Source: a virus (taxonomy: Duplodnaviria > Heunggongvirae > Uroviricota > Caudoviricetes). Taken from it: DNA of 19,663 nucleotides. The notes below the pieces were generated by a model. The model searched no databases, was not told the DNA's origin, and saw nothing but the letters and a program-made list of their open reading frames with translations. The stretch covers positions 1 to 19,663 of IMG/VR virus record IMGVR_UViG_2695420792_000006; one strand, written 5' to 3'. This document shows, in pieces, positions 1-15,772 of this stretch. The translations under genes and the position numbers were made by a program. Each line of letters starts with the position of its first letter. The stretch's first letter is position 1.

Positions 1-1287
1 TCAGAGTCTGGCTCTATGGGGCATGTATGGGACACTCTCCGTCAACTGCTTATTGAGTAGTTCTATTTGCCCGATATTGTTATCTTTCATCCATGCTCCG
101 TAAACGTTGAATACCATTTGTGCATTTGCATGGCCCATTTGGTTTGCTATGAAGCTTGGATTCGCTCCTGCCGATAATGCCCAACAGGCATAAGTATGCC
201 TGGACTGATAGGCTTTTCTGTGCCGCAGTCCTGCTCGCCTTAATGCAGATGCCCAGGAATCTCTGATGGAATCTGCTTTATAGTGGTGACCGACTTGCTG
301 GCATTTTTTCACCAGTTGCGGATTAAAAACAAACGTGCATTCATGGCGTGCAGTGCGACCGAACTCCCGAAGCTTGACGTCAATTTGATACTGAGGGCCA
401 AGTCTTGTCATTTCAGCCTGGCTTTTCAGGGCATCAACAGCTGGTTGAACAAGATGAATAACACGATCAGTTCCCGCTTCTGTTTTTGGTAGAGTGAACT
501 CCCCGAGTTTTGTATAATTACGACGGATAGTCATTGTTTTAGCTTTTAAATCAATATCCTCCCAAGCGAGAGATATTAGCTCACCGTGACGAATGCCTGT
601 GTATACTGCTAAGGACCACAGGTTTTTCGTTTGTTGATGGTGACAGGCATCAATAAAACGAATAAATTCGTCTCGTGTGAGCGGATCTGGTTCTGTTCTG
701 GATCTCTTTAATGGTGTCAGGCCGTTAAATGGGTTTGACACGATATAGCCGTTATCAGCCGCAAATTGAAACATTCCTGCAATTGTCGTCATGTAGTAAT
801 TAACCGTAACTACTGACCTCCCTTTAATCGGCGTTGTTTTTCCGTTAGAGAGATTATGATACCCGGTTAACAAATCTTTCCTGATAAACAGTAAATCTTC
901 CTTTGTTACCGACGAAGCAAGACGTTTTTCCCCTATGCGAGGAAGCATGTTTCTCACCACGGATTGATACCGACTGAATGCATTACTTCCTATCTCAATT
1001 TTCTTAAGGTCCAACCATTTTTCCGAAAGTGCCTTAACGGTTATCTCTCTTTTTCCCAGACCAAAGTGTTTCAGGTTAGGGGAATTAGGGAACTGCGCGG
1101 CGTAGTCGAAACTCCCCATTCTGATTGCAAAACAAACGGAAGTGCGAAGTTCACCAGCGATCTTCCGGTTTTTGGCTGTGTCAGGAACACCGAGGTTTTC
1201 TCTGACACGTTTGCCATTATAGTGAAACCATATACGGAGTGATCCTCCATGGTTTTCAACGCCTGTCGGGTATGATGCGTTACTCAT
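1..1287 (-). CDS. int: Phage tyrosine integrase (site-specific recombinase)
   Basis: 428-aa ORF ending exactly at the window edge. C-terminal region has the R...HxxR...Y pattern typical of tyrosine recombinases (RHGELISLAWEDI, HDLRHTYA-like SRHTYACWALSAG, final YMPH). Sits next to an excisionase-like gene as in lambdoid int-xis modules. Confidence 0.88.
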   Translation of the reverse strand: MSNASYPTGVENHGGSLRIWFHYNGKRVRENLGVPDTAKNRKIAGELRTSVCFAIRMGSFDYAAQFPNSPNLKHFGLGKREITVKALSEKWLDLKKIEIGSNAFSRYQSVVRNMLPRIGEKRLASSVTKEDLLFIRKDLLTGYHNLSNGKTTPIKGRSVVTVNYYMTTIAGMFQFAADNGYIVSNPFNGLTPLKRSRTEPDPLTRDEFIRFIDACHHQQTKNLWSLAVYTGIRHGELISLAWEDIDLKAKTMTIRRNYTKLGEFTLPKTEAGTDRVIHLVQPAVDALKSQAEMTRLGPQYQIDVKLREFGRTARHECTFVFNPQLVKKCQQVGHHYKADSIRDSWASALRRAGLRHRKAYQSRHTYACWALSAGANPSFIANQMGHANAQMVFNVYGAWMKDNNIGQIELLNKQLTESVPYMPHRARL

Positions 1288-1320
1288 TAAACCTCCCAGA
1301 CGTCCAGGAGCATTAACAGG

Positions 1321-1575
1321 TTAACCGGAACTTGCATTTTTGGCACCTGGTTGTTTCTGGTTTTCGATCCATCGCATAATTTCTTCGATGTTGTACAGGC
1401 ATTCACTGTAATGCCCAGGATCACCTTCTACAGCGTAATGGCGGTATTCTTTTCCCTGCATCCATGACTTTCTTCTGGCCCGCTCGATGGTGCCGGGCTT
1501 TAGCCCTGTTGATGCAATAAGGACTCTCTCCGTACACCATTTGCTGGGGGTTATCTGATAGATGATTGTCTGCAT
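1321..1575 (-). CDS. Excisionase-like small DNA-binding protein (Xis/YdaQ-like)
   Basis: 84-aa ORF immediately upstream of int on the same strand with a 33-bp gap. Size, position and basic character fit a lambdoid Xis; the assignment is by context and recollection, not alignment. Confidence 0.55.
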   Translation of the reverse strand: MQTIIYQITPSKWCTERVLIASTGLKPGTIERARRKSWMQGKEYRHYAVEGDPGHYSECLYNIEEIMRWIENQKQPGAKNASSG

Positions 1576-1618
1576 GCCAACCTCATAAAACTTTCATCCA
1601 CGGCAGTGGCACCACACT

Positions 1619-1735
1619 TCAAACATTCGCTTCACATCTTCTGTACAACACGGTGTTGTTTATGCAGCGAACAATTTTTACCGGGTAACCGGCACTGTCG
1701 GTATACAGTTGTCCCTGATTAATCAGAGCGAACAT
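1619..1735 (-). CDS. Small hypothetical protein (38 aa)
   Basis: Internal ATG (complement of 1733-1735) of the 79-aa track ORF, preceded by a GGAGA Shine-Dalgarno at 6-nt spacing. The longer 79-aa version overlaps the upstream gene. Confidence 0.3.
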   Translation of the reverse strand: MFALINQGQLYTDSAGYPVKIVRCINNTVLYRRCEANV

Positions 1736-1766
1736 TTTTTCTCCTGCTCTCTGAATAGTGAGAACT

Positions 1767-2150
1767 TCAGAGCCGTATGTTTGTAGCGGGTTCAATGCTG
1801 ATAATTTCTGCTGAGATAAGCATCCCGGCAAGCCAGAGTTCTCCGGACAGGTCTTCATCCTGGCATATCAGTTCGCCAATATTAATGGTGGCCATGATAT
1901 CCGTTTCCCCTGTGCGCTCATCCAGGGCTTCTTCATAAGGCAGCGTTGCGTACAGGCTTTCAATAGCGCAATTGATAACATCCAGTCCGGTCAGATTGCC
2001 GCCGACAGTAACTTCGAATGTTTCGCGGTATTCCCATAGTCCGAAAGTTAATCGAACGGTTTGTTTTGCCATGCGTCCGCACGACGTCAGATTCGGGTCA
2101 TAGTTCATTATTTGCGGTTGAGTATTCTGGTTGTTCATCTGATTTTCCAT
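1767..2150 (-). CDS. Hypothetical acidic protein (start uncertain)
   Basis: Track ORF 1767..2210 overlaps the 3' end of the SPFH gene. I favour the internal ATG at 2150 (MENQ...), which lies just after a hairpin at 2154-2170. Start codon is not resolved and no family is recognised. Confidence 0.4.
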   Translation of the reverse strand: MENQMNNQNTQPQIMNYDPNLTSCGRMAKQTVRLTFGLWEYRETFEVTVGGNLTGLDVINCAIESLYATLPYEEALDERTGETDIMATINIGELICQDEDLSGELWLAGMLISAEIISIEPATNIRL

Positions 2151-2178
2151 TAACCCGGCGGTTTGCCGGGCGTGTAAG

Positions 2179-3006
2179 TTATTTAATCTGGATAAATGGT
2201 GTATTGGCACCGCTGGTCATGTATTGCGGCAGAGTACCGTTCCACTTGTTGATGGCTTCCAGCTCCATGACGCCAGGGTTCTGGCGCAGAGCTTCACCGC
2301 GTAAACGAATAGCATCGGCCTCGGCCTGGGCTTTTGTGCGAATCGCATCTGCCTGTCCGGCAGCTTCCGCGCGCAACATGTTAGCTTCCGCTTCGCGCTG
2401 TTTTACTTCCTGTTCGCGTTGCAGGGTTTTCTGGTTCGCCGTGACTTTGGCATTAATGCTGTCGATAACGGTTGGCGGGTACTCCGGCTTACCCACATAT
2501 GAGAGACTCATTACCTGAATACCGATGGGCGTCATTTCTGCCTGAATGTCTTTAAGAGCTGCATCCAGTAGTTCAGACTTCCCGCCGTCGATAAATTTGT
2601 CAGTGGTCATTTTGCTGGCCAGTCGATTGAGTGCGTCGGCGATCTTCTGGCGCAGGTCAGTATCGGTAATGTCATCCACGCCTTTGCGGTAGGTCTGAAA
2701 CACCGTGGTAACTTTGGATGGATCAACTTTGTAGGCAACACCGATGTGATAGCCAATGGTTGTGCCGTCACTCATCTGGAAGCTGAACGGCTCATCGTAG
2801 GTCTTCATTTGTTTGAAGGTTGGGAAGATGTAAACTTCAGTGTTCCATCCCGTCCAGTAGCGCCCAACACCGACCACTTCACCGACGCCTTTATCGTCGC
2901 CAAGTTTGTTTACTTTGATGCCCACATTACCAGGCTCAACGCGATCGCAACCGACAAGGCCAATGGTCGGCAGAACAAGGGCTAAAGCAAAAAGTAATTT
3001 TTTCAT
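2179..3006 (-). CDS. SPFH/band-7 (prohibitin/HflKC/YqiK-like) lipoprotein
   Basis: 275 aa. N-terminal signal peptide with lipobox LVGC. C-terminal Ala/Glu-rich coiled coil (QREAEANMLRAEAAGQADAIRTKAQAEADAIRLRGEALRQNPGVMELEAINKWNGTLP) is characteristic of SPFH-family proteins. Start codon overlaps the stop of the upstream small membrane gene. Confidence 0.8.
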   Translation of the reverse strand: MKKLLFALALVLPTIGLVGCDRVEPGNVGIKVNKLGDDKGVGEVVGVGRYWTGWNTEVYIFPTFKQMKTYDEPFSFQMSDGTTIGYHIGVAYKVDPSKVTTVFQTYRKGVDDITDTDLRQKIADALNRLASKMTTDKFIDGGKSELLDAALKDIQAEMTPIGIQVMSLSYVGKPEYPPTVIDSINAKVTANQKTLQREQEVKQREAEANMLRAEAAGQADAIRTKAQAEADAIRLRGEALRQNPGVMELEAINKWNGTLPQYMTSGANTPFIQIK

Positions 3007-3191
3007 CTTTTATCCTTAGAAAAAGAAAGACCCTTATAAATGGCATAAATGCAGGGCGGGGTCAGACACGCCAGAGCAAAGCCAGAAATCACTGCTACCG
3101 TATCCTTCATTGATATGAGGGCCGGAACGATTAATCCGTAAATACATGTGATAATTGCCAGTGATATAACTATTCTGAAATAAATGTTCAT
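3003..3191 (-). CDS. Small 2-TM membrane protein, translationally coupled to the SPFH gene
   Basis: 62 aa with two hydrophobic helices (IVISLAIITCIYGLIVPALI and AVISGFALACLTPPCIYAIY). AGGAGG Shine-Dalgarno 3 nt upstream of the ATG. 4-nt overlap with the SPFH start. Confidence 0.55.
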   Translation of the reverse strand: MNIYFRIVISLAIITCIYGLIVPALISMKDTVAVISGFALACLTPPCIYAIYKGLSFSKDKR

Positions 3192-3251
3192 GGTCCTCCT
3201 GATGTATGCGGCTTGCCTTATTTAATTGCGTCATGGTTAATTTCGTTTACG

Positions 3252-3644
3252 TCAGAATGGTTTTGTTGCCATCAGTTCGTAATATCCGGCGCTCCATGTG
3301 TCATATTTTCTGAACCATTTTTCTGTATACTGTTTCCTGGCGATGAGTCTGCGCAGTCGTCTGATTGTTCGCTGGTGTGCGCGGGTATACTCTGTGGTTG
3401 ATTCTCCACGTTTCCATATCTCATTCCCGTTGAAGATAAAACGCTTGTCAGGATAGCGTTGCCGGAATCCTGAACGTTCAAAAGCGCGGGTGGTCATAAA
3501 GAATGCCAGGTAACGAATTGCCGTTTTTCGGGTGAGGCATTTTTTTGTTCTTCCGTGGCGTGTTACAAAAAATAACGGGCCGACGGGTGTATCATGTTTC
3601 TGTAATGCCTGGTCAATGGCGCTGGCGGTGCGGTTGTCGATCAT
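3252..3644 (-). CDS. Hypothetical basic protein (Arg/Lys-rich, possible nucleic-acid binding)
   Basis: 130-aa ORF in the leftward early operon, rich in basic residues (RTIRRLRRLIARKQY). No family recognised. Confidence 0.5.
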   Translation of the reverse strand: MIDNRTASAIDQALQKHDTPVGPLFFVTRHGRTKKCLTRKTAIRYLAFFMTTRAFERSGFRQRYPDKRFIFNGNEIWKRGESTTEYTRAHQRTIRRLRRLIARKQYTEKWFRKYDTWSAGYYELMATKPF

Positions 3645-3830
3645 TTCTTTATTTCTCCCGAATAACGTTCATGACTCATTACTTCCCAGTTCCGGCCGTC
3701 GCCTTTCGATAACAGCCGCCAGCAACGGTTAACCTTCAGACTGAGATATCCGGTGCGCTGTATCCGATGCGGAAATATCCGTCGGCATCGGTACAACAAC
3801 AGGACCTGCAATGCCTGCCGGTGGATCCGC

Positions 3831-4046
3831 TCAGGAATGCGTGTTGCTGTTAATGCCACCGGTTTCCTCCTGAGCAGGTGCTGTTATCTGATACCCCGCT
3901 CTTTCTGCCAGCCGTATGAATGTATCCATGCTGGCAATCAGCTCGCCATCGCGGACTTTGCAGACACCTGTGACTTGGCCATTTTCAATTGTCATAACGA
4001 TCTGCACTTTTTCGCGCACAACAGATACAGGGGATAAATTAGCCAT
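3831..4046 (-). CDS. Hypothetical small protein
   Basis: 71-aa ORF in the same orientation as the early-left operon, with coding-like composition. No family recognised. Confidence 0.45.
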   Translation of the reverse strand: MANLSPVSVVREKVQIVMTIENGQVTGVCKVRDGELIASMDTFIRLAERAGYQITAPAQEETGGINSNTHS

Positions 4047-4171
4047 CAGTTAATTCCTCCACTGGTATATTTTTCTTTCGCGTAATCAATAACCTCTTGA
4101 AAAAGGTTGTCTATAATTAACTTTCCGGTTTCAGTCAGGTATTCAGTATGTTGATTAATCCCGATAGCATT

Positions 4172-4405
4172 CTAGTATGCAGTGTGGATTTCGGTTTCAC
4201 CCTCCACCCGGCCCAATTCACCACGGGTAATACCTTCGAAGCGTAACAGCAACTGGTTTATAAACTGTTCAGTTATTTCTATAGTCGCAATGTTCCCATC
4301 CGGAAGGTCAACAATAAGCAGATTACCACCTGTTTTACGTTTTATTCGATGGAGTGCCGCAACAGCTATACGGCGACGATATGTATTAATGGGTTCATAT
4401 GCCAT
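4172..4405 (-). CDS. Hypothetical small protein
   Basis: 77-aa ORF in the early-left operon. No family recognised. Confidence 0.45.
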   Translation of the reverse strand: MAYEPINTYRRRIAVAALHRIKRKTGGNLLIVDLPDGNIATIEITEQFINQLLLRFEGITRGELGRVEGETEIHTAY

Positions 4406-4604
4406 TTGTTATTTCCCGTATGCTTTACGCAGAAATAAGCAGGCAATATGCATGTAATTTTCACCGTGTTGTGCAATAAGACAGGCTGTTTTGTGTGATG
4501 TCTTATGTTTTATAAAAGTCATAATAAAGGCTCCAGTGGATTAAGTGTGTGATAATCCCCGGCGATTAAGCCGTAATATATTGTTCAGCGATAATATGTT
4601 TTAT

Positions 4605-4805
4605 TTAACTGGATAGTTCTTTTTCAGTTGCTGCTTCAGCATAGCAACGTGCAAATTCAAGAACTTCATCACCTGTTCTTTTTATTGCATCGTTGTCTGA
4701 CATTTGTAATACGACAACTGCGCATAATAAATCATGGATATTGTTTGCAAAGGAATCCGGTGCCAGGCATAAGCCTTCATACTTATCATGGATATTGCCA
4801 GTCAT
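4605..4805 (-). CDS. Hypothetical small protein (66 aa)
   Basis: Internal ATG (MTGNIHDKYEG...) with an AAGGAG Shine-Dalgarno, 5 nt downstream of the stop of the tandem-HTH gene. The longer track ORF (to 4847) would overlap that gene. Confidence 0.45.
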   Translation of the reverse strand: MTGNIHDKYEGLCLAPDSFANNIHDLLCAVVVLQMSDNDAIKRTGDEVLEFARCYAEAATEKELSS

Positions 4806-4810
4806 TGTTG

Positions 4811-5482
4811 CTACTCCTTTGCTTCTGATTTTCCCGTTAACAACCACACCAGGTCACAATTAAGCGCACTGGCCAGTGGTACTATCTGATCAGCAGGAAC
4901 TTCACAGATGCCGCATTCCCAGTCGTTTATGGGGTCACTGTAGGTATGAATCATGCGGGCAAGATCAGCTTCAGTTAAGCCCAGTTTTTTACGGGCGCTT
5001 TTGATGCGTGCGCCAATACTTTCCACATGGACTTCAGGCGCATTTACGCGAATAGCTGACTCGCTGTTTTTTTCACTCAGCAGAGAAAGCGGATCGCATC
5101 CCAGGACGTTTGCCAGGGGGATAAGCATGCTGATGGTTGGTTCGTACTCTCCGCTCTCCCATTGCAGAATAATCTCTTCGTCAAGATCGAGTAGTCTGGC
5201 CAGTTCGGTGGTCGTCAAGCCGCAGGCTTCACGTTGGGTACGGATTTTTCCAAAAAAGTGACTATGCGAAACCATAGCTTTTGCCTCACATAGTTTTTCT
5301 GCAAAAATTGATGCAGTTTCTTCTGTTTTTTGCAGGGAACGCATCAGGCATCTGATTGCATTATAAACCCTCTCACTTTCTGCTCCGTTTTCTGACATGT
5401 AGGAATAGATCATTCCAAGCAGCGAGCCGCCTTCTTGTATTTGTGCTGCAATTTCATCCATCACCTTAACTGCATGCTTCAT
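4811..5482 (-). CDS. Tandem HTH (XRE-type) DNA-binding protein with unknown N-terminal domain; first gene of the pL-like operon
   Basis: 223 aa. Two XRE-like helix-turn-helix segments (TTTELARLLDLDEEIILQWESGEYEPT and LTEADLARMIHTYSDPINDWECGICEVPADQI). AGGAGG Shine-Dalgarno 4 nt upstream. A consensus sigma70-like promoter lies immediately upstream. Confidence 0.7.
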   Translation of the reverse strand: MKHAVKVMDEIAAQIQEGGSLLGMIYSYMSENGAESERVYNAIRCLMRSLQKTEETASIFAEKLCEAKAMVSHSHFFGKIRTQREACGLTTTELARLLDLDEEIILQWESGEYEPTISMLIPLANVLGCDPLSLLSEKNSESAIRVNAPEVHVESIGARIKSARKKLGLTEADLARMIHTYSDPINDWECGICEVPADQIVPLASALNCDLVWLLTGKSEAKE

Positions 5483-5507
5483 ATGAGCCTCCTGTTGTTT
5501 TAATTTT

Positions 5508-5536
5508 ACAATAGCTAAAGCGTTTGGTTATGTCAA
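5508..5536 (-). promoter_or_regulatory. pL-like promoter (-35 TTGACA, 17-bp spacer, -10 TATTGT) with overlapping operator-like motif
   Basis: Minus-strand reading gives TTGACA(17 nt)TATTGT upstream of the 223-aa gene. The 13-mer TCAATCGCTATAG (5533-5545) overlaps the -35 and recurs at 6448-6460 beside the cro-like promoter. Confidence 0.5.
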
Positions 5537-5658
5537 TCGCTATAGCTATGCATTTTGAGCAGCAAAGAACAGATTATGAGAGAAATGAGACGATACGTAG
5601 GGAGTTGAGATACAGGAAAGTAGAGCAGCTGCGCAATACAGCTGCCGGTGATGTTGAC

Positions 5659-6363
5659 TTATCCGACCCTGTTATACTGGATTGACTGATGAATGAGAAC
5701 TTTCCCCATTATGAATAGATGTTCTTCAGCTGATTCACTTATAAACCATTCCTTGTAGGCCGGATTGTCTGATATAACAGCAAGTTGCATCCCTTGCATT
5801 TGCAGGCGTTTGATATGGAAGGTGTGCCCAAAAATAAAAACATAGATACCGTCAGTTTCAAAATTTCTGACGGATACGTCGACAAACACCTGATCTCCTG
5901 CACACAGAGTAGGAGCCATGCTGTCGCCATCAACTGTTATCATCTTTATGATATTTGCTGGCCTGCTACAGAACAGACGTCTTGCGGCGTCATGTGAAAA
6001 TTCTATAGCATGGACCGTTTCTGCAAAATCTGAAACAAGGAATGTTCCTGGTCCCGCGCTGGCAGCGATATCCAGGACTTCCACACGAAAAATATCCTTA
6101 TCATTTTCCAGCGGGGAATATGATACCTGTGGTGTCGGATTGCAGGATGTGCTTTCTTCTGGGGTCATAGGACCAACACCGTACGATAGCCACTCGGGGC
6201 GCACGTTCAGGGTATTGGCTATCTCCACAACTTTCCTGGAGCCTGTGGCACCATTAACCAGTTTATTTACGCTCGATTGAGCCATGCCAACCTCTCTGGC
6301 CAGTTTTCCCTGCGAGTATCCGCGGATAGTCATAGCTAACTGTAGCCTGTCTGAAAAGCTCAT
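5659..6363 (-). CDS. cI-like prophage repressor (HTH_XRE + S24 LexA-like peptidase domain)
   Basis: N-terminal HTH (YSQGKLAREVGMAQSSVNKLVNG) and C-terminal S24-like region with the GDSM serine motif and a downstream lysine (VDGDSMAPT ... HIKRL). Start set at the ATG with an AGGAGG Shine-Dalgarno at 6368-6373 rather than the longer track ORF. Divergent from a cro-like gene. Confidence 0.85.
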   Translation of the reverse strand: MSFSDRLQLAMTIRGYSQGKLAREVGMAQSSVNKLVNGATGSRKVVEIANTLNVRPEWLSYGVGPMTPEESTSCNPTPQVSYSPLENDKDIFRVEVLDIAASAGPGTFLVSDFAETVHAIEFSHDAARRLFCSRPANIIKMITVDGDSMAPTLCAGDQVFVDVSVRNFETDGIYVFIFGHTFHIKRLQMQGMQLAVISDNPAYKEWFISESAEEHLFIMGKVLIHQSIQYNRVG

Positions 6364-6387
6364 AAGTCCTCCTTTTTCTGCCCTTTT

Positions 6388-6416
6388 AGTGTATCGCCTT
6401 AGCGATATATACACAA
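6388..6416 (-). promoter_or_regulatory. pRM-like promoter for the repressor (-35 TTGTGT, 17 bp, -10 TACACT) overlapping a palindromic operator
   Basis: Read on the minus strand. The palindrome TATCGCcttaGCGATA (6392-6407) lies in the spacer. Confidence 0.4.
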
Positions 6417-6432
6417 ACCGCTTTTCCGCACA

Positions 6433-6461
6433 TTGTAATCGCTTTGATCAATCGCTATAGT
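6433..6461 (+). promoter_or_regulatory. pR-like promoter for the cro-like gene (-35 TTGTAA, 17 bp, -10 TATAGT) with AATCGCT operator repeats in the spacer
   Basis: TTGTAA at 6433-6438, 17-nt spacer, TATAGT at 6456-6461, about 25 nt upstream of the cro-like ATG. Direct repeats AATCGCT occur at 6437-6443 and 6450-6456. Confidence 0.45.
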
Positions 6462-6486
6462 GAATGGAATCAGGTTGGAGGTCGAT

Positions 6487-6750
6487 ATGAAAAATGAAGG
6501 TATAGCCAAGGCTGTAGATATTGCGGGAAGCCAGATTGCTCTGGCTAGGCGTTGTGGTCGCGCGCAGTCAACAATTTGCGACTGGCTGAATGGGAAGAAA
6601 AAAATTTCTCCTGAATTTGTTCCGTCTCTGGTTAAGGCGGTCGATGGGAAAGTCCAGGCGTATGAATTTCGTCCTGATCTACCGGAGCTTTTCCCACACC
6701 CAAGCTTAGCGCACACAGAAGATGGAGTGTGCGAAGGAGATAAACAGTGA
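6487..6750 (+). CDS. Cro/YdaS-like HTH regulator
   Basis: ATG at 6487 with a GGAGG Shine-Dalgarno at 5-nt spacing. HTH segment (IAGSQIALARRCGRAQSTICDWLNG). Divergent from the cI-like repressor, the classic immunity-region layout. Confidence 0.7.
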   Translation: MKNEGIAKAVDIAGSQIALARRCGRAQSTICDWLNGKKKISPEFVPSLVKAVDGKVQAYEFRPDLPELFPHPSLAHTEDGVCEGDKQ

Positions 6751-7454
6751 ATACAGCAATTTTTACCGACAAAGCATCTATGACCAGCGTTGAGATTGCT
6801 GAGTTGGTTGGTAAGCGCCATGACAATGTAAAACGCACTATTGAAACATTAGCCAAAGGTGGTGTTGTCCGGTCTCCTCAAATTGAGGTTTCCGAAAGAA
6901 TCAATAACTTAGGGTTTAAAGTTCAACACGAGCATTATCTGTTTGAAGGCGAACAAGGCAAACGCGACAGCATTATTGTTGTCGCACAGCTTTGCCCTGA
7001 ATTCACCGCCCGCCTGGTAGACCGCTGGCGTGAACTGGAAGAACAGATCCGTAAGCCAATGAGCGAAATCGAAATGGTTGCCGCGATGGCGCTCGAGGCT
7101 GTTCGCCAACAAAGACGTCTTGAGCATGTGGAAGAGAAAGTCATCCACGTTACCGAAACAGTCGAGCAAATCAAAAGAGGCACCATACGCGATGGTTATG
7201 CAGGCTACCGTCAGCTGGTGGCGAAAACGGGTATGTCAGATGCGAAATGTCGCAATCTGGTGAACGCATATCAGATCCCTACTGACACCCATGAATTTAT
7301 GACGCCGGATGGATTGTTGTCTCGTCGCGCGATTGTTGCAGTAGAACCCTTCATGTCTGCTTTTCATCGCATGATGAGTGAAGCAGAACCACGGGGTACT
7401 CGCTGGTATCACCCGAAGATGGGGCTGTTCCAGGCGCTGGGCTGGCAGGGGTAA
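6747..7454 (+). CDS. Rha-family phage regulatory protein
   Basis: N-terminal Rha-type motif (MTSVEIAELVGKRHDNVKRTIETL). GTG at 6747 has an AAGGAG Shine-Dalgarno at 7-nt spacing and overlaps the cro-like stop. An alternative ATG start lies at 6780. Confidence 0.65.
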   Translation: MNTAIFTDKASMTSVEIAELVGKRHDNVKRTIETLAKGGVVRSPQIEVSERINNLGFKVQHEHYLFEGEQGKRDSIIVVAQLCPEFTARLVDRWRELEEQIRKPMSEIEMVAAMALEAVRQQRRLEHVEEKVIHVTETVEQIKRGTIRDGYAGYRQLVAKTGMSDAKCRNLVNAYQIPTDTHEFMTPDGLLSRRAIVAVEPFMSAFHRMMSEAEPRGTRWYHPKMGLFQALGWQG

Positions 7455-7473
7455 TTATGCTCACAGGTAACAC

Positions 7474-7653
7474 ATGCAAGTACTCAATCGCTGGTTCCGT
7501 GATGGAAGAGGGCGTCGCGTCCACGTTATACGCTGGGAGCCTGAAACACAGCGGGTTATTTACCTGCGTGATGGTTATCCGGATGAGTGCTTCAGCCCAC
7601 TATGGTTGTTTCGTCGTGATTTTGTTGAGTGCGAAGCGCCACCAGCATATTGA
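7474..7653 (+). CDS. Small hypothetical protein (59 aa) in an alternate frame to the track ORF
   Basis: My translation of ATG 7474 gives MQVLNRWFRDGRGRRVHVIRWEPETQRVIYLRDGYPDECFSPLWLFRRDFVECEAPPAY, which looks protein-like. It falls below the track's length cut-off. The overlapping N-terminal 157 aa of the 340-aa track ORF look non-native. Confidence 0.35.
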   Translation: MQVLNRWFRDGRGRRVHVIRWEPETQRVIYLRDGYPDECFSPLWLFRRDFVECEAPPAY

Positions 7654-7927
7654 TTCTGCAATTCCGGGACGTTACACTGCTCAGGCACCTTATAAAGCGG
7701 GTGCCGGGATTGGCGTCCTGAAACTTACAGAAGAGCATAACCGCGCTCATGCGGTTTTTTCATGTCATGAGCATTGCTACGCCCAAATTATGGTGGGGCG
7801 TGCAGGGGCATCGCAAGATGCGCCGGGTTCTTCTGTGACCGGTTACGCCAACCCTGTACGTCTCACCACCTCTGTGATTGGCGTCCCATGTGGTGAGTGT
7901 TTTAAACTCACAGAAGGGGCTGTCATC

Positions 7928-8479
7928 ATGACTACTCTCCCAACCATCGCTCAACCTGAACTTTGCATTGTTGCTGGCAAAGTGGTTACTTCTTCTCTGT
8001 CTGTTGCCTGTTATTTCCGCAAACAACACAAAAATGTCATTCAAAAAATTGCGTCTCTTGAATGCTCTGCCGAATTTACTGAGCTGAATTTTCAGCCCAG
8101 TGAATACACCGACGCATCAGGCCGCAAACTCCCTTGTTACCAAATCACCCGCGACGGTTTTGCATTTCTTGCTATGGGTTTCACGGGTAAACGTGCTGCC
8201 CGGTTCAAAGAAGCATACATCAATGCCTTTAACCAGATGGAGAGGTGCTTATCAGGAGTTGGTGCGGCTGATATGCCATCTGTCGCACAAAACGCCAGAG
8301 GCGTATACCTGCATTTGCGAGAAATCCACCAAATCTGGACAAGCCAGCTTTATCCCATGCTTAAGGCTGTTGAATCTCCGCTGGCTAGCAAACTGTACGA
8401 CCGTGTAGGTGATGCTGTTTTTGGTGCTGCACTTGTTGATTCCAGACTGAACGGTTCTGACAAGGAGGCGCACCCATGA
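7928..8479 (+). CDS. Rha-family phage regulatory protein (second copy)
   Basis: Rha-type core from MTTLPTIAQPELCIVAGKVVTSSLSVACYFRKQHKNVIQKI ... TRDGFAFLAMGFTGKRAARFKEAYINAFNQME. ATG at 7928 preceded by GAAGGGG. The upstream 7457-7927 part of the track ORF is probably not part of this protein. Confidence 0.6.
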   Translation: MTTLPTIAQPELCIVAGKVVTSSLSVACYFRKQHKNVIQKIASLECSAEFTELNFQPSEYTDASGRKLPCYQITRDGFAFLAMGFTGKRAARFKEAYINAFNQMERCLSGVGAADMPSVAQNARGVYLHLREIHQIWTSQLYPMLKAVESPLASKLYDRVGDAVFGAALVDSRLNGSDKEAHP

Positions 8480-8709
8480 TTCGCCGCGTCGTTAGTTCCC
8501 TGTATCACCGATACAACCACTGCCCCCGTGTGGGGCAGTGGTTCACCACCAGCAACGGTCACGTTCTGCGGGTTTGCCTGGTCAATACAGAAAGCCAGAA
8601 GGTTGTCTGCCAGGTTCAGGGATGTACTCATACCCTGAGTTATCCGCTGGTGGCGTTTCAGTCCGGAAAAATGTTTAAACGCCTGGGAGGTGGCTATGCG
8701 TCCGTCTGA
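8476..8709 (+). CDS. Small Cys/His-containing hypothetical protein
   Basis: 77 aa. Perfect AAGGAGG Shine-Dalgarno at 7-nt spacing. ATGA overlap with the preceding Rha gene stop. Confidence 0.45.
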   Translation: MIRRVVSSLYHRYNHCPRVGQWFTTSNGHVLRVCLVNTESQKVVCQVQGCTHTLSYPLVAFQSGKMFKRLGGGYASV

Positions 8710-9589
8710 TCTTCTGCTCGATTTTGGACATCCGGTTGCTTATTACCCTGGGCTCGTTAAATACATGGGAAGTCCGCACGCTGTTATTTTCTTTGGTCAG
8801 ATTTTTTACTGGCAGGATAAAGCACATGCAGCGGAAGGCGTACATAAAACGCGTGAAGAGATACAACACGAAACAGGACTTACATTTGAACAACAGGCTG
8901 TAGCGCGTAAGTATCTTGTGTCCAGAGGCATTTTGGTTGAAACCAACAAGCGTCTTGAGCACAAAATGTTCTACCGTATAGATTGTGAGCGCCTTAATGA
9001 AATTATCAATGAAAACAATCAGTTTTCCCGAAATGGGGAAACCCGTTTTCGGGAAACTGTAAAACCCAATTTCGCGGAGGAGGGAAAGCCTTCACCGCGG
9101 ACACGGGAAACCCCTCGCCGCGGAGAAGGGAAAACCAATTTCGATCTTACAGAGAATACAACAGAGATTACTTCAGAGAATACTACAGAGAGTAAAAACA
9201 CTATTGGCGCATCCGCTGACGCGTCTGCACCAGCACGTTCTGCCCGACAGGAATATTCACCGGAATTTGAACAGGCCTGGCAGGAATATCCCAAACGTGC
9301 TGGTGGTAATTCCAAGTCAGCAGCCTTCAAAGCCTGGAAAGCCCGTATCAGGGAAGGTGTGACACCCGAAACCATGCTCAACGGTGTGAAACGCTATGCC
9401 GCCTGGGTGCGTGTCTCAGGAAATACCGGCACCCAGTTCGTGAAGCAGGCATCGACGTTCTTTGGCCCCGATCGGCACTTTGACGAATCCTGGCAACAGT
9501 CAGCAGCTCCCGGAGGTGGGCGGGGCAAAAGCCTCCCGATCTCGGGATTCAGTGAACAGGACTACGGCTCAACGAACTTCAACTGGTGA
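8696..9589 (+). CDS. Phage replication initiation protein (O-like replisome organiser) carrying internal iteron-like repeats
   Basis: ATG at 8696 with GGAGG 5 nt upstream. Lies directly upstream of the DnaC-like and DnaB-like genes. Contains a repeat-rich internal DNA segment (9023-9190), as the lambda O gene contains ori. Confidence 0.6.
   Translation: MRPSDLLLDFGHPVAYYPGLVKYMGSPHAVIFFGQIFYWQDKAHAAEGVHKTREEIQHETGLTFEQQAVARKYLVSRGILVETNKRLEHKMFYRIDCERLNEIINENNQFSRNGETRFRETVKPNFAEEGKPSPRTRETPRRGEGKTNFDLTENTTEITSENTTESKNTIGASADASAPARSARQEYSPEFEQAWQEYPKRAGGNSKSAAFKAWKARIREGVTPETMLNGVKRYAAWVRVSGNTGTQFVKQASTFFGPDRHFDESWQQSAAPGGGRGKSLPISGFSEQDYGSTNFNW
9023..9190. repeat. Iteron-like repeats (CGGGAAA/GGGAAAnC, about 6 copies) followed by an AT-rich tandem 24-bp repeat; candidate origin of replication
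   Basis: Copies at about 9023-9030 (inverted), 9035-9044, 9050-9057, 9082-9088, 9104-9111 and 9128-9135. Then cagagaatacaacagag / cagagaatactacagag at 9150-9190. Confidence 0.45.
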
Positions 9590-9606
9590 TTTTGTGGGGT
9601 GTGAAA

Positions 9607-10497
9607 ATGATTAATTTCCTGAACAAACAACACATGCAACACGACAAAGCGCAATTACTCAACCGCAGTGCGGAGCTGGAGGAGGAGATGCAGTTTGCCC
9701 GTGCCGGGAAGCGTCCGTGGCGCTGTGAGCACTGGCTGGCAAGCGATGAGACTGCAGAGTGTGAGAAGCACGGAAAATATACTCGTCTGGTGTTGAAAGG
9801 GCCAGATATTCGCGGAGAAACCATCAAACGGGTATCCGGATGTCCGCGCTGCATCGCAGAAGAACTGGATCACGTGCATGACGAATTACGCGCCCTGAAG
9901 GTTCGTGAATTACTCGATCAGGCCGGTATTGCCCGCCGCTTTGAGAACTGCGAGTTTGAGAACTATCAGGCTGTGAATGCCGGGGCTCAGCGGAATCTTG
10001 ATGCCTGCCAGCGTTATGTCGATGCCTGGAAGGATCACCTCGCGGCGGGTACCAGCATGATCATGATTGGCAATTGCGGTACCGGGAAAAATCACCTGGC
10101 TGTATCAATGGCAAAAAATATTATTCGCCACCACCTGGCGACCGTCGAAATTACGGATGTTATGCGACTGACCCGCGCTGTGAAAAATACATGGCGTCAC
10201 AATTCTGAACGCACTGAAGATGAAGTTATTGACCATTTTGTATCACTGGACCTGCTCATCATTGATGAAGTCGGTGTTCAGTTTGGCACGCCTGCCGAGA
10301 TAACCATCCTGCAGGAAATCATCAACGCGCGTTACGAAAGTATTCTGCCAACAATTCTGATCAGCAACCTGACGTTTGACCAGCTTAAGGAGTCCATTGG
10401 TGAGCGAATTGTAGATCGCGTTACTGACGGCGGGCGTAACCGCCTGGTGTTTGGCTGGGAGAGCTACCGGGCAAATATCGGAGGTGTTGCCGCATGA
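9607..10497 (+). CDS. DnaC-like helicase loader (AAA+ ATPase, IstB/DnaC family) with N-terminal Cys4 zinc-binding region
   Basis: Walker A motif GNCGTGKNHLAVS, Walker B motif LLIIDEVG, and an N-terminal four-Cys cluster (CEHW...CEKHG...CPRC). Start may be the GTG at 9586 (track) or the ATG at 9607. Confidence 0.8.
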   Translation: MINFLNKQHMQHDKAQLLNRSAELEEEMQFARAGKRPWRCEHWLASDETAECEKHGKYTRLVLKGPDIRGETIKRVSGCPRCIAEELDHVHDELRALKVRELLDQAGIARRFENCEFENYQAVNAGAQRNLDACQRYVDAWKDHLAAGTSMIMIGNCGTGKNHLAVSMAKNIIRHHLATVEITDVMRLTRAVKNTWRHNSERTEDEVIDHFVSLDLLIIDEVGVQFGTPAEITILQEIINARYESILPTILISNLTFDQLKESIGERIVDRVTDGGRNRLVFGWESYRANIGGVAA

Positions 10498-11894
10498 CCA
10501 GCCAGAACAACCCGGCATGGCGTAACGATGACCTGGAAGGTGCGGTGATTGGCGCGTTTTTTCTGCGTGGGGCTGATCCGGAAGTGATGGATATTCTGGC
10601 CACGCTTCCGGCGGATGTATTTTTCGTGCGTCAGTACCGGGATATTTACGCGGGGATTTGCAGACAGGCCCGCGTATCCGGCGTCATTGACCCCGTGCTG
10701 CTGTGCAATGAGATGCCGGAACTTGCCCCGGTGATTACCGACACCGGGCGCAAAACCTGGGTGAAGTCTTCACTGGAGCACTATGTTGCAGCGCTGCGAC
10801 GCAATGCCGCACTGCGCGATGCAGAAAAAACACTGACTGAAGCATTACAGAATTTACGTGATGCACATACCTGCGAAGCGGCAGAAGATGCCCTGAAGGA
10901 TGCGCAGAACATGATGGCCTCACTGTCGACCGGAAAGGGCGTCATTCAGCCGGTTCACATTGATGATGTCCTTCCGGAAGTGGTGGGCCGTGTTGAATGC
11001 CGGAATCAGGGACTGGAGAAATCCAGGGCGCTGATGACCGGTATTGATGAACTGGACGCAAAAACGGGCGGTATGGAGCCCGGAGACCTGGTATTCATTG
11101 CCGCCCGTCCTTCGATGGGGAAAACAGAACTTGCGCTGGACATCATCGACAAGGTGACTGAGCAGGGGCATGGCGTGCTTCTGTTCACCATGGAGATGGC
11201 GAACATCCAGATTGGTGAACGTATGGTGTCTGCAGCAGGGGGAATGCCGGTATCCCGTCTTAAGTCTGTTGCCCGTTTTGAAGATGAAGACTGGGCGCGT
11301 TTCTCACAGGGCGTGGGACGAATGACGGGGCGTAATATCTGGATGGTGGACCAGGCAAATCTGACCATTGATGAGATATGTGCAACCACGAGGTACCACC
11401 GGATGAAGCATCCGGAAACGGCGCTGGTGGTGGTCGATTACCTCGGCCTGATTAAAACCCGCAGCACGGGGCGTCACGACCTTGCGGTGGGGGAAATCTC
11501 AAAGGGACTTAAAAGCCTGGCAAAATCCGGCGGTTTTCCGCTGATTGCTCTGAGCCAGCTCTCCCGCGGCGTGGAATCCAGACCCAATAAACGTCCCATG
11601 AACTCAGACCTGAAAAACTCCGGGGAAATCGAGGCTGATGCCGACATCATTCTGATGCTTTACAGGGATGAGGTGTATAACCCGGATACACAGGCGAGAG
11701 GCATAGCAGAAATCAACATCACGAAACAGCGTAATGGCACGCTCGGGACCATTTACCGGCGTTTTCATAACGGACATTTTCTGCCTGTGGACCAGGAGAG
11801 TGCCCGGGTTCTTTCCACACCCATGACGCCGGGCAATCCGCGCAGATACAGCAATAACCGCATGTCGGGCAGTAAAGCGGAGCGTTTATTTTGA
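10494..11894 (+). CDS. DnaB-family replicative DNA helicase
   Basis: DnaB-type motifs GIDELDAKTGGMEPGDLVFIAARPSMGKTELALDI (Walker A), VVVDYLGLI, and LSQLSR(G)VE. ATGA overlap with the loader gene. Confidence 0.85.
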   Translation: MTSQNNPAWRNDDLEGAVIGAFFLRGADPEVMDILATLPADVFFVRQYRDIYAGICRQARVSGVIDPVLLCNEMPELAPVITDTGRKTWVKSSLEHYVAALRRNAALRDAEKTLTEALQNLRDAHTCEAAEDALKDAQNMMASLSTGKGVIQPVHIDDVLPEVVGRVECRNQGLEKSRALMTGIDELDAKTGGMEPGDLVFIAARPSMGKTELALDIIDKVTEQGHGVLLFTMEMANIQIGERMVSAAGGMPVSRLKSVARFEDEDWARFSQGVGRMTGRNIWMVDQANLTIDEICATTRYHRMKHPETALVVVDYLGLIKTRSTGRHDLAVGEISKGLKSLAKSGGFPLIALSQLSRGVESRPNKRPMNSDLKNSGEIEADADIILMLYRDEVYNPDTQARGIAEINITKQRNGTLGTIYRRFHNGHFLPVDQESARVLSTPMTPGNPRRYSNNRMSGSKAERLF

Positions 11895-12148
11895 ATAACA
11901 GAACAGCCACTGTTTCACCGGAACAACTTCGTCGCCAGGCGCAGGAGATGCTTCGTTGTGCTGAACAGATGGAAAAAATGAGCGTGGCAAAGGATACGCT
12001 CCGCAAGCAGCTTACTCCGGCGCTTCGTGATCTGCTGCAGGCAAAACACCGCACACAAAAGGCGGTGGATGAGCTGGTGGATTGCGTGGCGGAACTGGAA
12101 GGCAAGGTAAGCCAGTTTGAAACTCTGGTGAAGGAGTTTACTGCGTGA
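11891..12148 (+). CDS. Small coiled-coil hypothetical protein (start uncertain, track start is TTG)
   Basis: 85-aa ORF overlapping the helicase stop. Charged, helical-looking sequence. No family recognised. Confidence 0.35.
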   Translation: MNNRTATVSPEQLRRQAQEMLRCAEQMEKMSVAKDTLRKQLTPALRDLLQAKHRTQKAVDELVDCVAELEGKVSQFETLVKEFTA

Positions 12149-12193
12149 TGGCTGAATTTTTTCTCCTGTGTTCATGCAATATCGTTCGCTGAG

Positions 12194-13189
12194 GTGACCG
12201 TGAGAGCATTGTTGACTCCTGAAATTGCCCCGCGAATGGGGATTGTATTGTTCAGACCCGGTTCAGAGCTGATGCCCCTGTTTATGCAGGGGCGTGTCCT
12301 GCTGGAGCCTGAGCCGGAACGTTATTCATCTTTCGCCAGTGGTGCCGTTCCGGCGGCATCACAACCGCTGGCGGATGATCCTGCCGTTCGGGCCGTGTTC
12401 CGCAATGAGGCAGTGATCCGTCGTGCTGGTGGCGTGGAATGTCTTGAAAGCTGGTTACTTCGTGAAAAAGGCTGCCAGTGGCTTCATTCCGACTGGCACA
12501 GCGAGAACATGACCACAATGCGACACGCGCCGGGCGCAATCCGTCTGTGCTGGCACTGCGATAACCAGCTGCGCGATCAGTTCACGGAACGGCTGGAATC
12601 AATGGCAACGGATAACTGTGCCCGCTGGGTGTTGTCTGTTGTGCGTCGGGATCTCGGTTTTGATGACAGTCACGTTGTGACAATGCCGGAACTGTGCTGG
12701 TGGCTGGTTCGTAATAATCTGGCGGATGCCTTACCGGAAAGCGCAGCCCGTAAGGCACTGAGATTACCGAATCCTGTTGTGCCGTCTGTCACCCGGGAAA
12801 GTGACCTTGTGCCTTCGGTTCCTGCCACCAGCATCATCCAGGATAAGGCGAAAAAGGTGCTGGCGCTGAAAGTGGATCCGGAGTCGCCGGAGTCTTTTAT
12901 GTTACGCCCAAAACGTCGCCGCTGGGTTAATGAAAAGTACACGCGCTGGGTTAAGACACAGCCGTGCGCATGTTGTGGAAAGCCTGCTGATGATCCCCAC
13001 CACCTGATAGGCCACGGTCAGGGGGGAATGGGTACAAAAGCGCATGACCTCTTTGTGTTGCCTTTGTGCAGAAAGCATCACGACGAGCTGCATGCGGATA
13101 CCGTGGCATTTGAAGAGAAGTATGGCTCCCAGCTGGAGCTGATATTTCGTTTTATCGATCGCGCGCTGGCAACTGGCGTGCTGGCCTGA
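12194..13189 (+). CDS. DUF968-like phage protein with C-terminal HNH-like zinc-finger motif
   Basis: C-terminus CACCGKPADDPHHLIGHGQGGMGTKAHDLFVLPLCRKHHDELH matches an HNH-type CxxC...HH...CxxxHH pattern. Lies immediately upstream of Q, as ydfU-like genes do in E. coli cryptic prophages (recollection). Track start is GTG; the true start is unresolved. Confidence 0.55.
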   Translation: MTVRALLTPEIAPRMGIVLFRPGSELMPLFMQGRVLLEPEPERYSSFASGAVPAASQPLADDPAVRAVFRNEAVIRRAGGVECLESWLLREKGCQWLHSDWHSENMTTMRHAPGAIRLCWHCDNQLRDQFTERLESMATDNCARWVLSVVRRDLGFDDSHVVTMPELCWWLVRNNLADALPESAARKALRLPNPVVPSVTRESDLVPSVPATSIIQDKAKKVLALKVDPESPESFMLRPKRRRWVNEKYTRWVKTQPCACCGKPADDPHHLIGHGQGGMGTKAHDLFVLPLCRKHHDELHADTVAFEEKYGSQLELIFRFIDRALATGVLA

Positions 13190-13206
13190 TTTTGTGGATA
13201 AAGTTT

Positions 13207-13572
13207 ATGCGTGATATTCAGATGGTTCTGGATCGTTGGGGTGCATGGGCGGCGAGTGATAGTTCTGGGGTAGACTATTCGCCTATAGCTGCTGGGTTTA
13301 AAGGGCTTCTTCCCTATACAAGCAAAACACGTCAGGCTTGTTCAGATAGTGATGCATTAATTATTGAAGGTTGTCTTGCTCGTCTAAAGCAAAAAAGACC
13401 TGAAGAACACTCGCTTCTTGTTGCCCATTACCTATACGGTATCTCTAAAAGAAAGCTCGCCAAAGCTCGTAAAAAGGATGAGAAACTAATACGCATTGAG
13501 ATACAGATGGCTGAGGGTTTTGTTGAAGGCTGTCTCTCAATGCTTGATCTTTGTCTGGAAATGGACCAATAG
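13207..13572 (+). CDS. Late-gene antiterminator Q (QuuD/phage 21-type Q family)
   Basis: MRDIQMVLDRWGAWAA...GFKGLLP...EGCLARLK...LEMD closely resembles the roughly 125-aa Q antiterminators of E. coli lambdoid prophages as I recall them. ATG at 13207 preferred over the TTG track start. Confidence 0.8.
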   Translation: MRDIQMVLDRWGAWAASDSSGVDYSPIAAGFKGLLPYTSKTRQACSDSDALIIEGCLARLKQKRPEEHSLLVAHYLYGISKRKLAKARKKDEKLIRIEIQMAEGFVEGCLSMLDLCLEMDQ

Positions 13573-13583
13573 ACTACCAGAAT

Positions 13584-13620
13584 AGAAACTGCCGCTCAGC
13601 TTTGCGGATCGGCAGTTTCT
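13584..13620. repeat. Perfect 11-bp inverted repeat (AGAAACTGCCG / CGGCAGTTTCT, 15-nt loop) between convergent genes
   Basis: Lies between the Q stop and the stop of the minus-strand 140-aa gene, whose 3' end it overlaps. No U-tract on either side. Confidence 0.5.
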
Positions 13621-14018: not shown

Positions 14019-14284
14019 TTTCGTTTTGAATTCTCCGCAATTGCCTCTTCAATGAGGGTTGTTAGCATTTTTCCCTTTTTACTTGGAACTTTTATTACTA
14101 GCGTCTTAGTCACTCCGGATTCTTCATCGTGATATCGGAATTCGAAGACTTTTGTAGGGAATAGTCGACGCCAAAGCAAGGCTGACGCTGAATAGCAAAA
14201 ACGACTAAAGGCAGGGATGATCATTATCACCCCAATCCAGAAGATCAGTTGTGCTATCTGCATGTTCAGTGTCACTTTTGTCAA
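14015..14284 (-). CDS. Cassette gene 2: small membrane protein (1-2 TM)
   Basis: 89 aa. Hydrophobic N-terminus (IAQLIFWIGVIMIIPAF) and a Lys-rich soluble tail. 4-nt overlaps with both neighbouring genes. Confidence 0.55.
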   Translation of the reverse strand: MTKVTLNMQIAQLIFWIGVIMIIPAFSRFCYSASALLWRRLFPTKVFEFRYHDEESGVTKTLVIKVPSKKGKMLTTLIEEAIAENSKRK

Positions 14285-15622: not shown

Positions 15623-15772
15623 TGGCGGTTTCCTGCTGTGAAAATGGGCGGCTGGTGGGTGTTGGTAGCACCTGCCAGCCATTCGCTCATGCTTACTGGT
15701 CACAAGCGAACCATGGCCCACTGCTTTAGCGCAAAAGCAGAGTGAGCCTACCAGAGTTACGCTTACTGATCC

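Follow-up and report, generated by a model that had tools for sequence, protein, structure and literature searches.

The DNA analysed here (the window) comprises positions 1 to 19,663 of the IMG/VR virus record IMGVR_UViG_2695420792_000006 and represents a lambdoid Escherichia coli prophage. Here we describe the gene pair that follows its pL-like promoter, encoding a 223-aa protein with two helix-turn-helix (HTH) domains and a 66-aa partner protein. Several complete E. coli chromosomes match a 2.5-kb query around this locus with 100% identity, and a truncated yecE gene (DUF72) adjoins the prophage in one of them. The minus strand carries, in this order, an integrase, an excisionase, small early-left genes, the 66-aa open reading frame (ORF), the 223-aa ORF and a 234-aa repressor consisting of an HTH and a Peptidase_S24 domain. 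On the plus strand, a YdaS-family Cro is followed by Rha-type proteins, a DnaB-type helicase and a Q antiterminator. The 234-aa protein (5659-6363, minus strand) is referred to as the cI-like repressor, based on its HTH_3 and Peptidase_S24 domains (S24: E = 9.8e-18) and the RefSeq annotation.

The closest sequenced phages are the yecE/ompW Shiga toxin (Stx) phages of O145:H28 that carry Stx1a and Stx2a (LC5678xx), together with phiP27. The LC5678xx phages have been classed as replication/regulatory type 'Eru7', which is reported as the most widespread type among Stx phages in Western Europe, strains associated with hemolytic uremic syndrome included (PMC8951638). The same study covers the cI and cro-side genes only and leaves the gene directly behind pL undescribed (PMC8951638).

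A pL-like promoter with operator-like sites

The 223-aa gene (4811-5482, minus strand) is preceded by a pL-like sigma-70 promoter (5508-5536, minus strand) with the -35 element TTGACA (5536-5531), a 17-nt spacer and the -10 element TATTGT (5513-5508). With a score of 10/12, it is the best of eight promoter-like sites between 4000 and 7000. This number is unremarkable in comparison to shuffled sequences, in which 5.9 sites are expected, and the case for pL therefore rests on the quality and the position of the site. Transcription would start near 5501 and produce a 5' untranslated region of about 19 nt, in which a ribosome binding site (RBS; AGGAGG, 5493-5488) precedes the 223-aa ORF.

A 13-mer (CTATAGCGATTGA) is present in exactly two copies in the window, one located over the -35 element of pL (5533-5545) and the other over the -10 element (6448-6460) of the cro-side promoter (TTGTAA-17-TATAGT, 6433-6461, plus strand). 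We derived a 14-bp palindromic operator consensus, ATCGC-N4-GCGAT, which the copies fit, and scanned the window with it. The sole copy without mismatch, ATCGCCTTAGCGAT (6393-6406), lies in the divergent region between cI and cro, and the sole copy with one mismatch, ATCGCTATAGCTAT (5536-5549), overlaps the -35 element of pL and includes part of the shared 13-mer. Two mismatches were found in ATAGCTAAAGCGTT (5511-5524), an inverted repeat over the -10 element of pL, and in a site at 6451-6464, which forms a cro-side operator-like region (6448-6464) together with the second 13-mer and overlaps the -10 element there. In addition, a Salmonella prophage encodes a cI with 64.5% identity to the one in the window and a recognition helix that reads the same by eye; it has a perfect palindrome (ATCGCTATAGCGAT) at the equivalent place. 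From the shared operator-like sites and this palindrome we infer, on solid grounds, that the cI-like protein represses the pL-like promoter.

These results are in agreement with an earlier note on this DNA, which had described a near-consensus promoter with an operator-like 13-mer shared with the cro side and had assigned the 223-aa gene to the position of lambda N. The promoter and the repeat are present with all coordinates correct, and the gene is indeed promoter-proximal in an early-left operon that appears to be repressor-controlled.

Just after the cI stop, a 9-bp G+C-rich hairpin (5624-5646, minus strand; centroid -14.5 kcal/mol, z -1.8) is followed by a U-poor tail. It is therefore a weak terminator at best, and some read-through from cI is possible. 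Clear canonical terminators are located after cI in sister phages of the immunity types A1 and MSSY. In five other immunity types, a promoter of their own, scoring 9-10/12, lies between cI and the regulator gene and is accompanied by its own repeated, operator-like motifs (by eye). As each immunity type examined has its own promoter, the position as first gene of a repressor-controlled pL is best regarded as a trait of the family and not as a peculiarity of the window.

A modular and mosaic XRE-family protein

The 223-aa protein is a member of the XRE/Cro-C1 superfamily. Pfam HTH_3 matches the protein with an E-value of 2.8e-17 and 62.9 bits (cut-off 23) in two stretches, aa 80-131 and approximately aa 157-220, and both HTH_19 and HTH_31 match it twice. 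A PDB sequence search connected HTH2 with the 434 and P22 c2 repressors and HTH1 with an MBF1-like HTH. The second of the two XRE-type domains proposed in the earlier note is thus supported by Pfam as well as PDB matches, and the N-terminal domain of 75 aa that it had called unrecognised has no counterpart in Pfam or NCBIfam; the module is matched solely by two PHROGs to which no function is assigned (phrog_27579, phrog_6882).

An AlphaFold2 model, based on an alignment of 35 sequences (mean predicted local distance difference test (pLDDT) score of 68), consists of a five-helix HTH1 (aa 78-134, pLDDT about 80; 5081-5251, minus strand), a disordered linker (aa 137-152) and HTH2 (aa 156-216, pLDDT about 83; 4835-5017, minus strand). 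The immunity-linked N-terminal module (aa 1-74; 5261-5482, minus strand), which we call the W-type cassette, is predicted to form a two-helix hairpin (helices at aa 2-32 and 37-73) with a pLDDT of about 60-65. Using Foldseek, the model matched the DNA-binding domains of P22 c2, 434 repressor and Cro, SinR, ImmR and CapH (template modelling score about 0.9 on the target), and the matches in the PDB were restricted to generic XRE domains.

HTH2 can be aligned over its full length with residues 1-66 of the 434 repressor and with positions 4-70 of the DicA model, and it has the same five-helix fold. An assignment to DicA itself (NF007257) was rejected: the score of 66.4 bits is below the cut-off of 101 and only model positions 4-70 of 135 were matched. 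Unlike DicA, 434 and P22 C2, the 223-aa protein lacks an S24 or DicA C-terminal domain. It was likewise rejected as an S24 immunity repressor, because it lacks Peptidase_S24, a domain found instead in the 234-aa cI-like protein encoded upstream. Wmk of the Wolbachia prophage WO and other tandem-XRE proteins resemble it in having two XRE HTHs in one phage polypeptide (NF047948 matched twice), but the match reaches 41 bits against a cut-off of 300 bits, and context and biology are unrelated. No CII family was among the Pfam matches at E-values up to 0.1, and the antirepressor families Ant/KilAC, Rha and ORF6N had no match in either the 223-aa or the 66-aa ORF.

The protein is acidic, with an isoelectric point (pI) of 4.95 and a net charge of -12, to which the domains of HTH1 (aa 75-136) and HTH2 contribute -6 and -3. 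The recognition helices, DLDEEIILQWESG in HTH1 and TYSDPINDWECG in HTH2, have net charges of -5 and -3 and are nearly invariant across the regulator family. The N-terminal domain of 434 as a whole carries +4, and the 434 repressor about -2 over the same 13 residues of the recognition helix (hand count). The net charge of the recognition helix is a weak discriminator, and the argument against canonical DNA binding therefore rests on the acidic positions and the whole-domain charge. In the HTH2 alignment, the positions that we take to be the operator contacts of 434 are Glu, Asp, Pro or hydrophobic. In distant Salmonella homologues, at least one of the recognition helices (TSGAMIREWETGK) is of a more ordinary kind. 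Directly after the recognition helix of HTH2 there is a CxxC motif (DWECGICEVP, aa 190-193), in which C190 is nearly invariant and C193 mostly conserved, and a redox or metal role of this motif is conceivable.

About 150 relatives were found, mostly in E. coli and a few in Shigella and Salmonella. Every listed database name is generic, most often 'helix-turn-helix domain-containing protein'. The family includes L10 and L08 of phiP27 as well as PHROG 4836 (labelled 'CII-like regulator', a depositor annotation), 4739, 4587 and 5451. Of 5,426 complete E. coli genomes, 139 carry the HTH block, and more than 1,000 contigs contain individual variants. Lambdoid prophages of the phiP27-like/'Eru7' kind in E. 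coli, Shigella and Salmonella share the regulator as a conserved gene that comes first after cI. A double-HTH protein in this position, which had been called unusual in the earlier note, is therefore not a rarity; phiP27 and Eru7-type Stx phages have this arrangement as a rule, and it is unusual only as being uncharacterised. The 'Clade VIII CI' of Stx phages, with two HTH_3 domains, no peptidase domain and an unknown role (PMC8951638), may be the same family picked up as cI.

Proteins of the family combine an N-terminal cassette of 60-90 aa with a highly conserved HTH1, an optional HTH2 and alternative C-terminal tails. By inspection and hhalign, we distinguished at least six mutually unalignable types of the N-cassette: W (in the window), A, ASU/MSSY, P27, MHNT and the P0063-type. 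Single-HTH forms of 132-182 aa exist, among the family members also phiP27 L10 with a P27-type hairpin and HTH1 alone, as does one Salmonella form with three HTHs. A search with aa 1-78 of the W-type in a set of 5.8 billion proteins returned close E. coli fragments only, and the 63-aa stand-alone W-type proteins of phrog_6882 may therefore be truncated gene calls.

Comparison with Stx phages of other immunity revealed a mosaic joint at about aa 73-81 (5239-5266, minus strand). On the cI side of the joint the DNA is immunity-specific; from about aa 73-80 on, the Stx phages match the window with 91-97% DNA identity, including the 66-aa ORF and the next 200 bp. Rates of synonymous (dS) and nonsynonymous (dN) substitution follow this joint. 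When types A1 and A2 are compared, cI and the N-cassette show saturated dS values (1.5 and 2.3, respectively), against a mere 0.33 for the HTH block, and comparison of the window with four heteroimmune phages resulted in a dS of 0.11-0.39 and a dN/dS of 0.09-0.20 for the HTH block. This contrast at the boundary of cassette and HTH1 indicates that the N-cassette belongs to an ancient immunity module, and that the block formed by HTH1, HTH2 and the small ORFs was exchanged recently. Judging from these ratios and from a dN/dS of 0.06 in the hairpin core of type A, the regulator genes are real and under purifying selection. In agreement with its immunity-specific nature, the cassette type corresponds one to one with the cI type, without exception, in 22 loci from genomes and phages and in 28 from IMG/VR, if A1 and A2 are counted as two types. 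The pairing extends to a W-type orthologue in Salmonella, in which an N-domain of 41% identity adjoins the 64.5%-identical cI.

A 66-aa hairpin protein and the downstream genes

The 66-aa ORF (4605-4805, minus strand) is separated from the stop codon of the 223-aa gene (TAG, 4813-4811) by the five nucleotides CAACA, followed by the start codon ATG (4805-4803), and its RBS (AAGGAG, 4819-4814) abuts this stop. It encodes an acidic protein (pI 4.4) that matches no family in Pfam, NCBIfam or PADLOC. AlphaFold2 predicted a helix-loop-helix hairpin (helices at aa 19-34 and 39-65) with a pLDDT above 90 in the core. Homologues of 37-59% identity keep the length and the motif pattern. In line with the earlier note, which had placed the ORF 5 nt after the stop and proposed to look for co-conservation of the pair, the regulator is found directly upstream of a small ORF in all 28 parsed IMG/VR loci, and likewise in every genome or phage locus examined; the junction in most E. 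coli loci is a 5-nt gap or a 4-nt overlap. The strong RBS, the homologues and the conserved adjacency argue that the 66-aa ORF is a real gene. In a longer form of 121 aa (phiP27 L08), the C-terminal half is the 66-aa domain.

The 66-aa protein is similar to the N-terminal cassettes of sister regulators. For the type-A cassette, BLASTP gave 45% identity over 42 aa (E = 5e-8) and hhalign 98.1% (E = 1e-13); for the ASU/MSSY cassette, hhalign reached 94.3% (E = 1e-7). Its PHROG match is the N-terminal part of phrog_4836. An iterated hidden Markov model (HMM) joined the small proteins, the A and ASU/MSSY cassettes and three small ORFs of Salmonella at E-values below 1e-20, and the best decoy from 20 shuffles per sequence had an E-value of about 0.3. 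By these comparisons, the 66-aa protein and the N-terminal cassettes of sister regulators are paralogues. Cassettes of the types W, P27 and MHNT were considered as further members of this hairpin family and rejected, as neither hhalign nor the iterated HMM gave a link.

A phmmer search of the 66-aa protein against 1.8 billion representatives yielded 13 matches, consisting of small ORFs, 121-aa L08 forms and two repeat-protein artefacts. A profile of 13 hairpin-family sequences detected only spurious designed-repeat matches among PDB sequences, Pfam found nothing relevant in any of the 13 members, Foldseek found nothing in the PDB at E < 1 for the 66-aa model, and the window has no credible further copy of the hairpin family.

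Salmonella prophages with different replication modules keep the order of repressor, multi-HTH protein and small ORFs. In two of them, L023 (4780-5806) and L024 (4918-5831) of Salmonella enterica, the multi-HTH regulator precedes a run of small ORFs with the hairpin-family members L023_75, L023_66 and L024_68. A hairpin-family ORF is the first downstream ORF in L023 and the second in L024. The L024 regulator has three HTH domains, and the repressor upstream of it, an HTH protein of 156 aa, lacks an S24 domain. Beyond what the earlier note contained, the analysis thus adds the paralogy of the 66-aa protein to sister N-terminal modules, the immunity-region character of the N-terminal module and the acidic recognition helices.

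The third gene of the conserved block is a basic ORF of 37 aa (MTFIKHKTSHKTACLIAQHGENYMHIACLFLRKAYGK; 4409-4522, minus strand), which is conserved in the phage lineages with the 66-aa ORF and in those with L08. Changes between lineages look mostly synonymous by eye, and gene calls include the ORF in loci L009 and L020. Only 4 nt separate its stop from the ATG of the next gene, ATA replaces ATG in lineage L010, and it has no PHROG match. Between the 66-aa and the 37-aa ORF lies TATTACGGYTTWATCGCYGGGKATT, and no other conserved non-coding element accompanies the HTH block. This most conserved non-coding stretch of the early-left block (4540-4575) has an only mildly stable RNA fold (z -2.2) and contains a 14-bp near-palindrome, AATCGCCGGGGATT (4554-4567), of which the window has no further copy. 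One may speculate that it is a candidate regulatory element at the protein or RNA level.

Further along the early-left operon, a 77-aa ORF (4172-4405, minus strand) represents the N-terminal portion of a gene of 119 aa (phrog_1737; region 4046-4405) that is intact in sister prophages and, because of an internal stop, a pseudogene in the window and in NZ_CP027219. A 72-aa ORF (3641-3859, minus strand) is annotated by RefSeq as 'ParE family toxin-like protein', and sister loci match Pfam ParE_like; the ORF overlaps the ORFs on both sides and has no recognisable antitoxin beside it. The operon also encodes a 275-aa Band_7/SPFH lipoprotein (2179-3006, minus strand), a homologue of phiP27 L05. The gene is present in many sister prophages and replaced by other genes in NZ_CP027219.

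On the plus strand, a Rha domain is encoded at 6747-7454. The following ORF (7457-8479) contains matches at the Rfam gathering level to isrK (7685-7761) and C4 antisense RNA (7786-7873), and both are within the 5' part of the RefSeq coding sequence (CDS) 'Rha family phage regulatory protein' (7583-8479). The annotated start of this CDS is probably wrong, and the Rha-family protein probably begins near 7958 (MTTLPTIAQPE). The arrangement resembles immI of P1 (c4-icd-ant) and the RNA-controlled antirepressor modules of the IsrK type in Salmonella. Downstream of the Q antiterminator gene, the plus strand carries tRNA-Met (CAT; 16871-16946), tRNA-Arg (TCT; 17047-17123) and the small RNA STnc100 (17893-18073). 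In Stx phages, the region downstream of Q harbours tRNAs together with stx.

Possible roles of the gene pair

Among the readings considered, we lean towards one in which the 223-aa protein is an early switch regulator that is modulated by a free paralogue of the hairpin, by analogy to SinR/SinI or AimC/AimX. This is a tentative preference, and we regard the reading as possible rather than probable. The regulator would be encoded by the promoter-proximal gene of a cI-repressed early-left operon in a phiP27/Eru7-type prophage at yecE and, because of this position, would be made only upon infection or induction. Its N-terminal two-helix hairpin, by evolutionary origin a part of the immunity region, would most likely serve oligomerisation or the choice of a partner, and HTH1, HTH2 and the downstream genes are swapped between heteroimmune phages as one block. 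The translationally coupled 66-aa hairpin could tune the 223-aa protein either by hetero-association or by competition for the same partner.

The SinR/SinI system of Bacillus subtilis, as well as the paralogous SlrR/SlrA, consists of an XRE regulator with a short helical oligomerisation module and an adjacent small homologous protein. The homology of small protein and regulator module holds for the sister regulators of type A (hhalign 98%) and ASU/MSSY (94%), and the AlphaFold2 models of the HTHs superpose on SinR's DNA-binding domain. In contrast to SinR, the hairpin is N-terminal, so that the order is reversed, there are two HTHs instead of one and the recognition helices are acidic; unlike sinI, the small gene is located downstream and not upstream of the regulator. 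A relation to the SinI family itself was not detected, neither as a relevant Pfam match in the 13 hairpin-family members nor as a sequence or fold match in the PDB. In arbitrium phages of Bacillus, the small antirepressor AimX binds the SinR-like XRE repressor AimC and blocks its oligomerisation, which was described as SinI/SinR-like by the authors (bioRxiv 10.1101/2025.11.23.689978). The AimC/AimX pair is a phage lysis-lysogeny module that combines a small protein with an XRE regulator; its hosts belong to another clade, and its proteins are not homologous to those described here. Unlike AimC, a maintenance repressor, the 223-aa protein is encoded downstream of what appears to be a repressor-controlled lytic promoter and is not an S24-type immunity repressor.

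Several results weigh against a modulated switch regulator. The W-type cassette of the window itself has no detectable homology to the 66-aa protein (hhalign E = 0.21; HMM E > 50), and the two share only the predicted helix-loop-helix shape, for the cassette in a low-confidence model. The type of the small ORF (66 aa or the 121-aa L08 form) reassorts freely with the type of the N-cassette, and the co-variation expected for a specific heterodimer is not observed. Furthermore, the acidic recognition helices at the 434 contact positions and the domain charge make classical operator binding by HTH1 and HTH2 doubtful. By eye, the pL regions of heteroimmune phages with the same HTH block have no motif in common, which renders autoregulation at pL unlikely. 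Finally, our literature search retrieved no experimental work on any member of the family and no study of the 223-aa gene.

In a second reading, the acidic HTH folds are not DNA binders but surfaces for protein interaction or DNA mimicry, and the immunity-linked hairpin binds the cognate cI or Cro. An antirepressor-like role had been raised in the earlier note and is possible; in this specific form, as a commitment factor that reinforces derepression once pL fires and for which the small hairpin is a decoy or helper, we consider it unlikely. There is a precedent in MOR of the lactococcal phage TP901-1, an HTH-fold protein that binds the phage's own CI, and both the net charge of -12 and the acidic recognition helices would suit such a function. 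The N-cassette tracks the type of cI and operator in all of the approximately 50 loci and 6 types, the pairing holds in the diverged Salmonella orthologue with its 64.5%-identical cI, 41%-identical N-domain and the same operator, and the cassette shares the saturated dS of cI (2.3 vs 1.5) next to a recent HTH block (dS 0.1-0.4). This linkage, however, is trivially explicable: the cassette is less than 180 bp away from cI and recombination is possible only in the conserved HTH1 DNA, so that physical proximity together with the lack of homologous DNA outside HTH1 accounts for it equally well. Between A1 and A2, moreover, the hairpin core differs (dN 0.17) despite near-identical cI proteins (dN 0.038). 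Induction of a repressor with an S24 autocleavage domain needs no antirepressor, and genes of the Rha/Ant type are already carried by the phage.

The position and the nature of the products also suit a function in anti-defence or host takeover, in which variable acidic hairpins would inhibit host factors or defence systems and be linked to an HTH as in Acr-Aca pairs or the AcrIIA1 fusion. Early, promoter-proximal genes encode these products, which are small, acidic and of high diversity, and the Salmonella runs of small ORFs after the regulator include two hairpin-family members in L023 and one in L024. The occurrence of the hairpin in free and fused form can be likened to the same duality in Acr-Aca architectures. 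Nevertheless, the promoters have no evident conserved operator of the Aca type, the hairpin core is under purifying and not diversifying selection (dN/dS 0.06), and PADLOC matched only the generic HTH. We therefore regard this reading as improbable.

A toxin-antitoxin, abortive-infection or exclusion module, composed of an HTH antitoxin and a small toxin, is a very improbable explanation. Gene order and coupling are like those of type II loci, and the HTHs have a weak similarity to the antitoxin models of HipB, MqsA and PezA; these matches are far below the curated cut-offs and reflect the generic HTH only. The suggestion in the earlier note that the genes might cause toxicity or rescue finds no support, as the 66-aa partner is an acidic helical hairpin without a toxin, Pfam or PADLOC match. 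In sister phages, the 66-aa partner is homologous to a domain of the supposed antitoxin itself, and behind a repressed lytic promoter the module would be silent in the lysogen. That the 223-aa protein replaces lambda N as processive antiterminator of the early operons can be practically dismissed, as the analogy is one of position only (first gene from a repressor-controlled leftward promoter, directly downstream of cI on the same strand) and extends neither to sequence, charge nor architecture: the protein is acidic and has no arginine-rich motif, the 5' UTR of about 19 nt is occupied by the RBS and leaves no room for a nutL-like leader between pL and the gene, the minus strand from 4000 to 5480 has no terminator-like site, and the Pfam scan at E-values up to 0.1 returned HTH-type and spurious families and no antiterminator family.

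Taken together, the 223-aa gene and its hairpin partner are a very common yet uncharacterised modular early gene of the XRE family. Under the favoured reading of a switch regulator with a free hairpin paralogue, the occurrence of the hairpin cassette both fused to HTHs and as a free protein would suggest a partner-switch logic in the style of SinI/SinR in lambdoid coliphages, for which we found no description in the literature searched. A more far-reaching variant of the commitment factor appears decidedly unlikely: the immunity-specific hairpin would bind the cognate cI or Cro, the acidic HTH folds, no longer able to bind DNA, would offer surfaces for protein binding or DNA mimicry, and the free hairpin paralogues would serve as a buffer. 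If this were true, Eru7/phiP27-type Stx prophages would encode, in their first pL gene, a new commitment switch at the protein level that sets induction and Shiga toxin output. More generally, if the 223-aa gene helps to set the balance between lysis and lysogeny, it would affect Stx2 production and the stability of the prophage.

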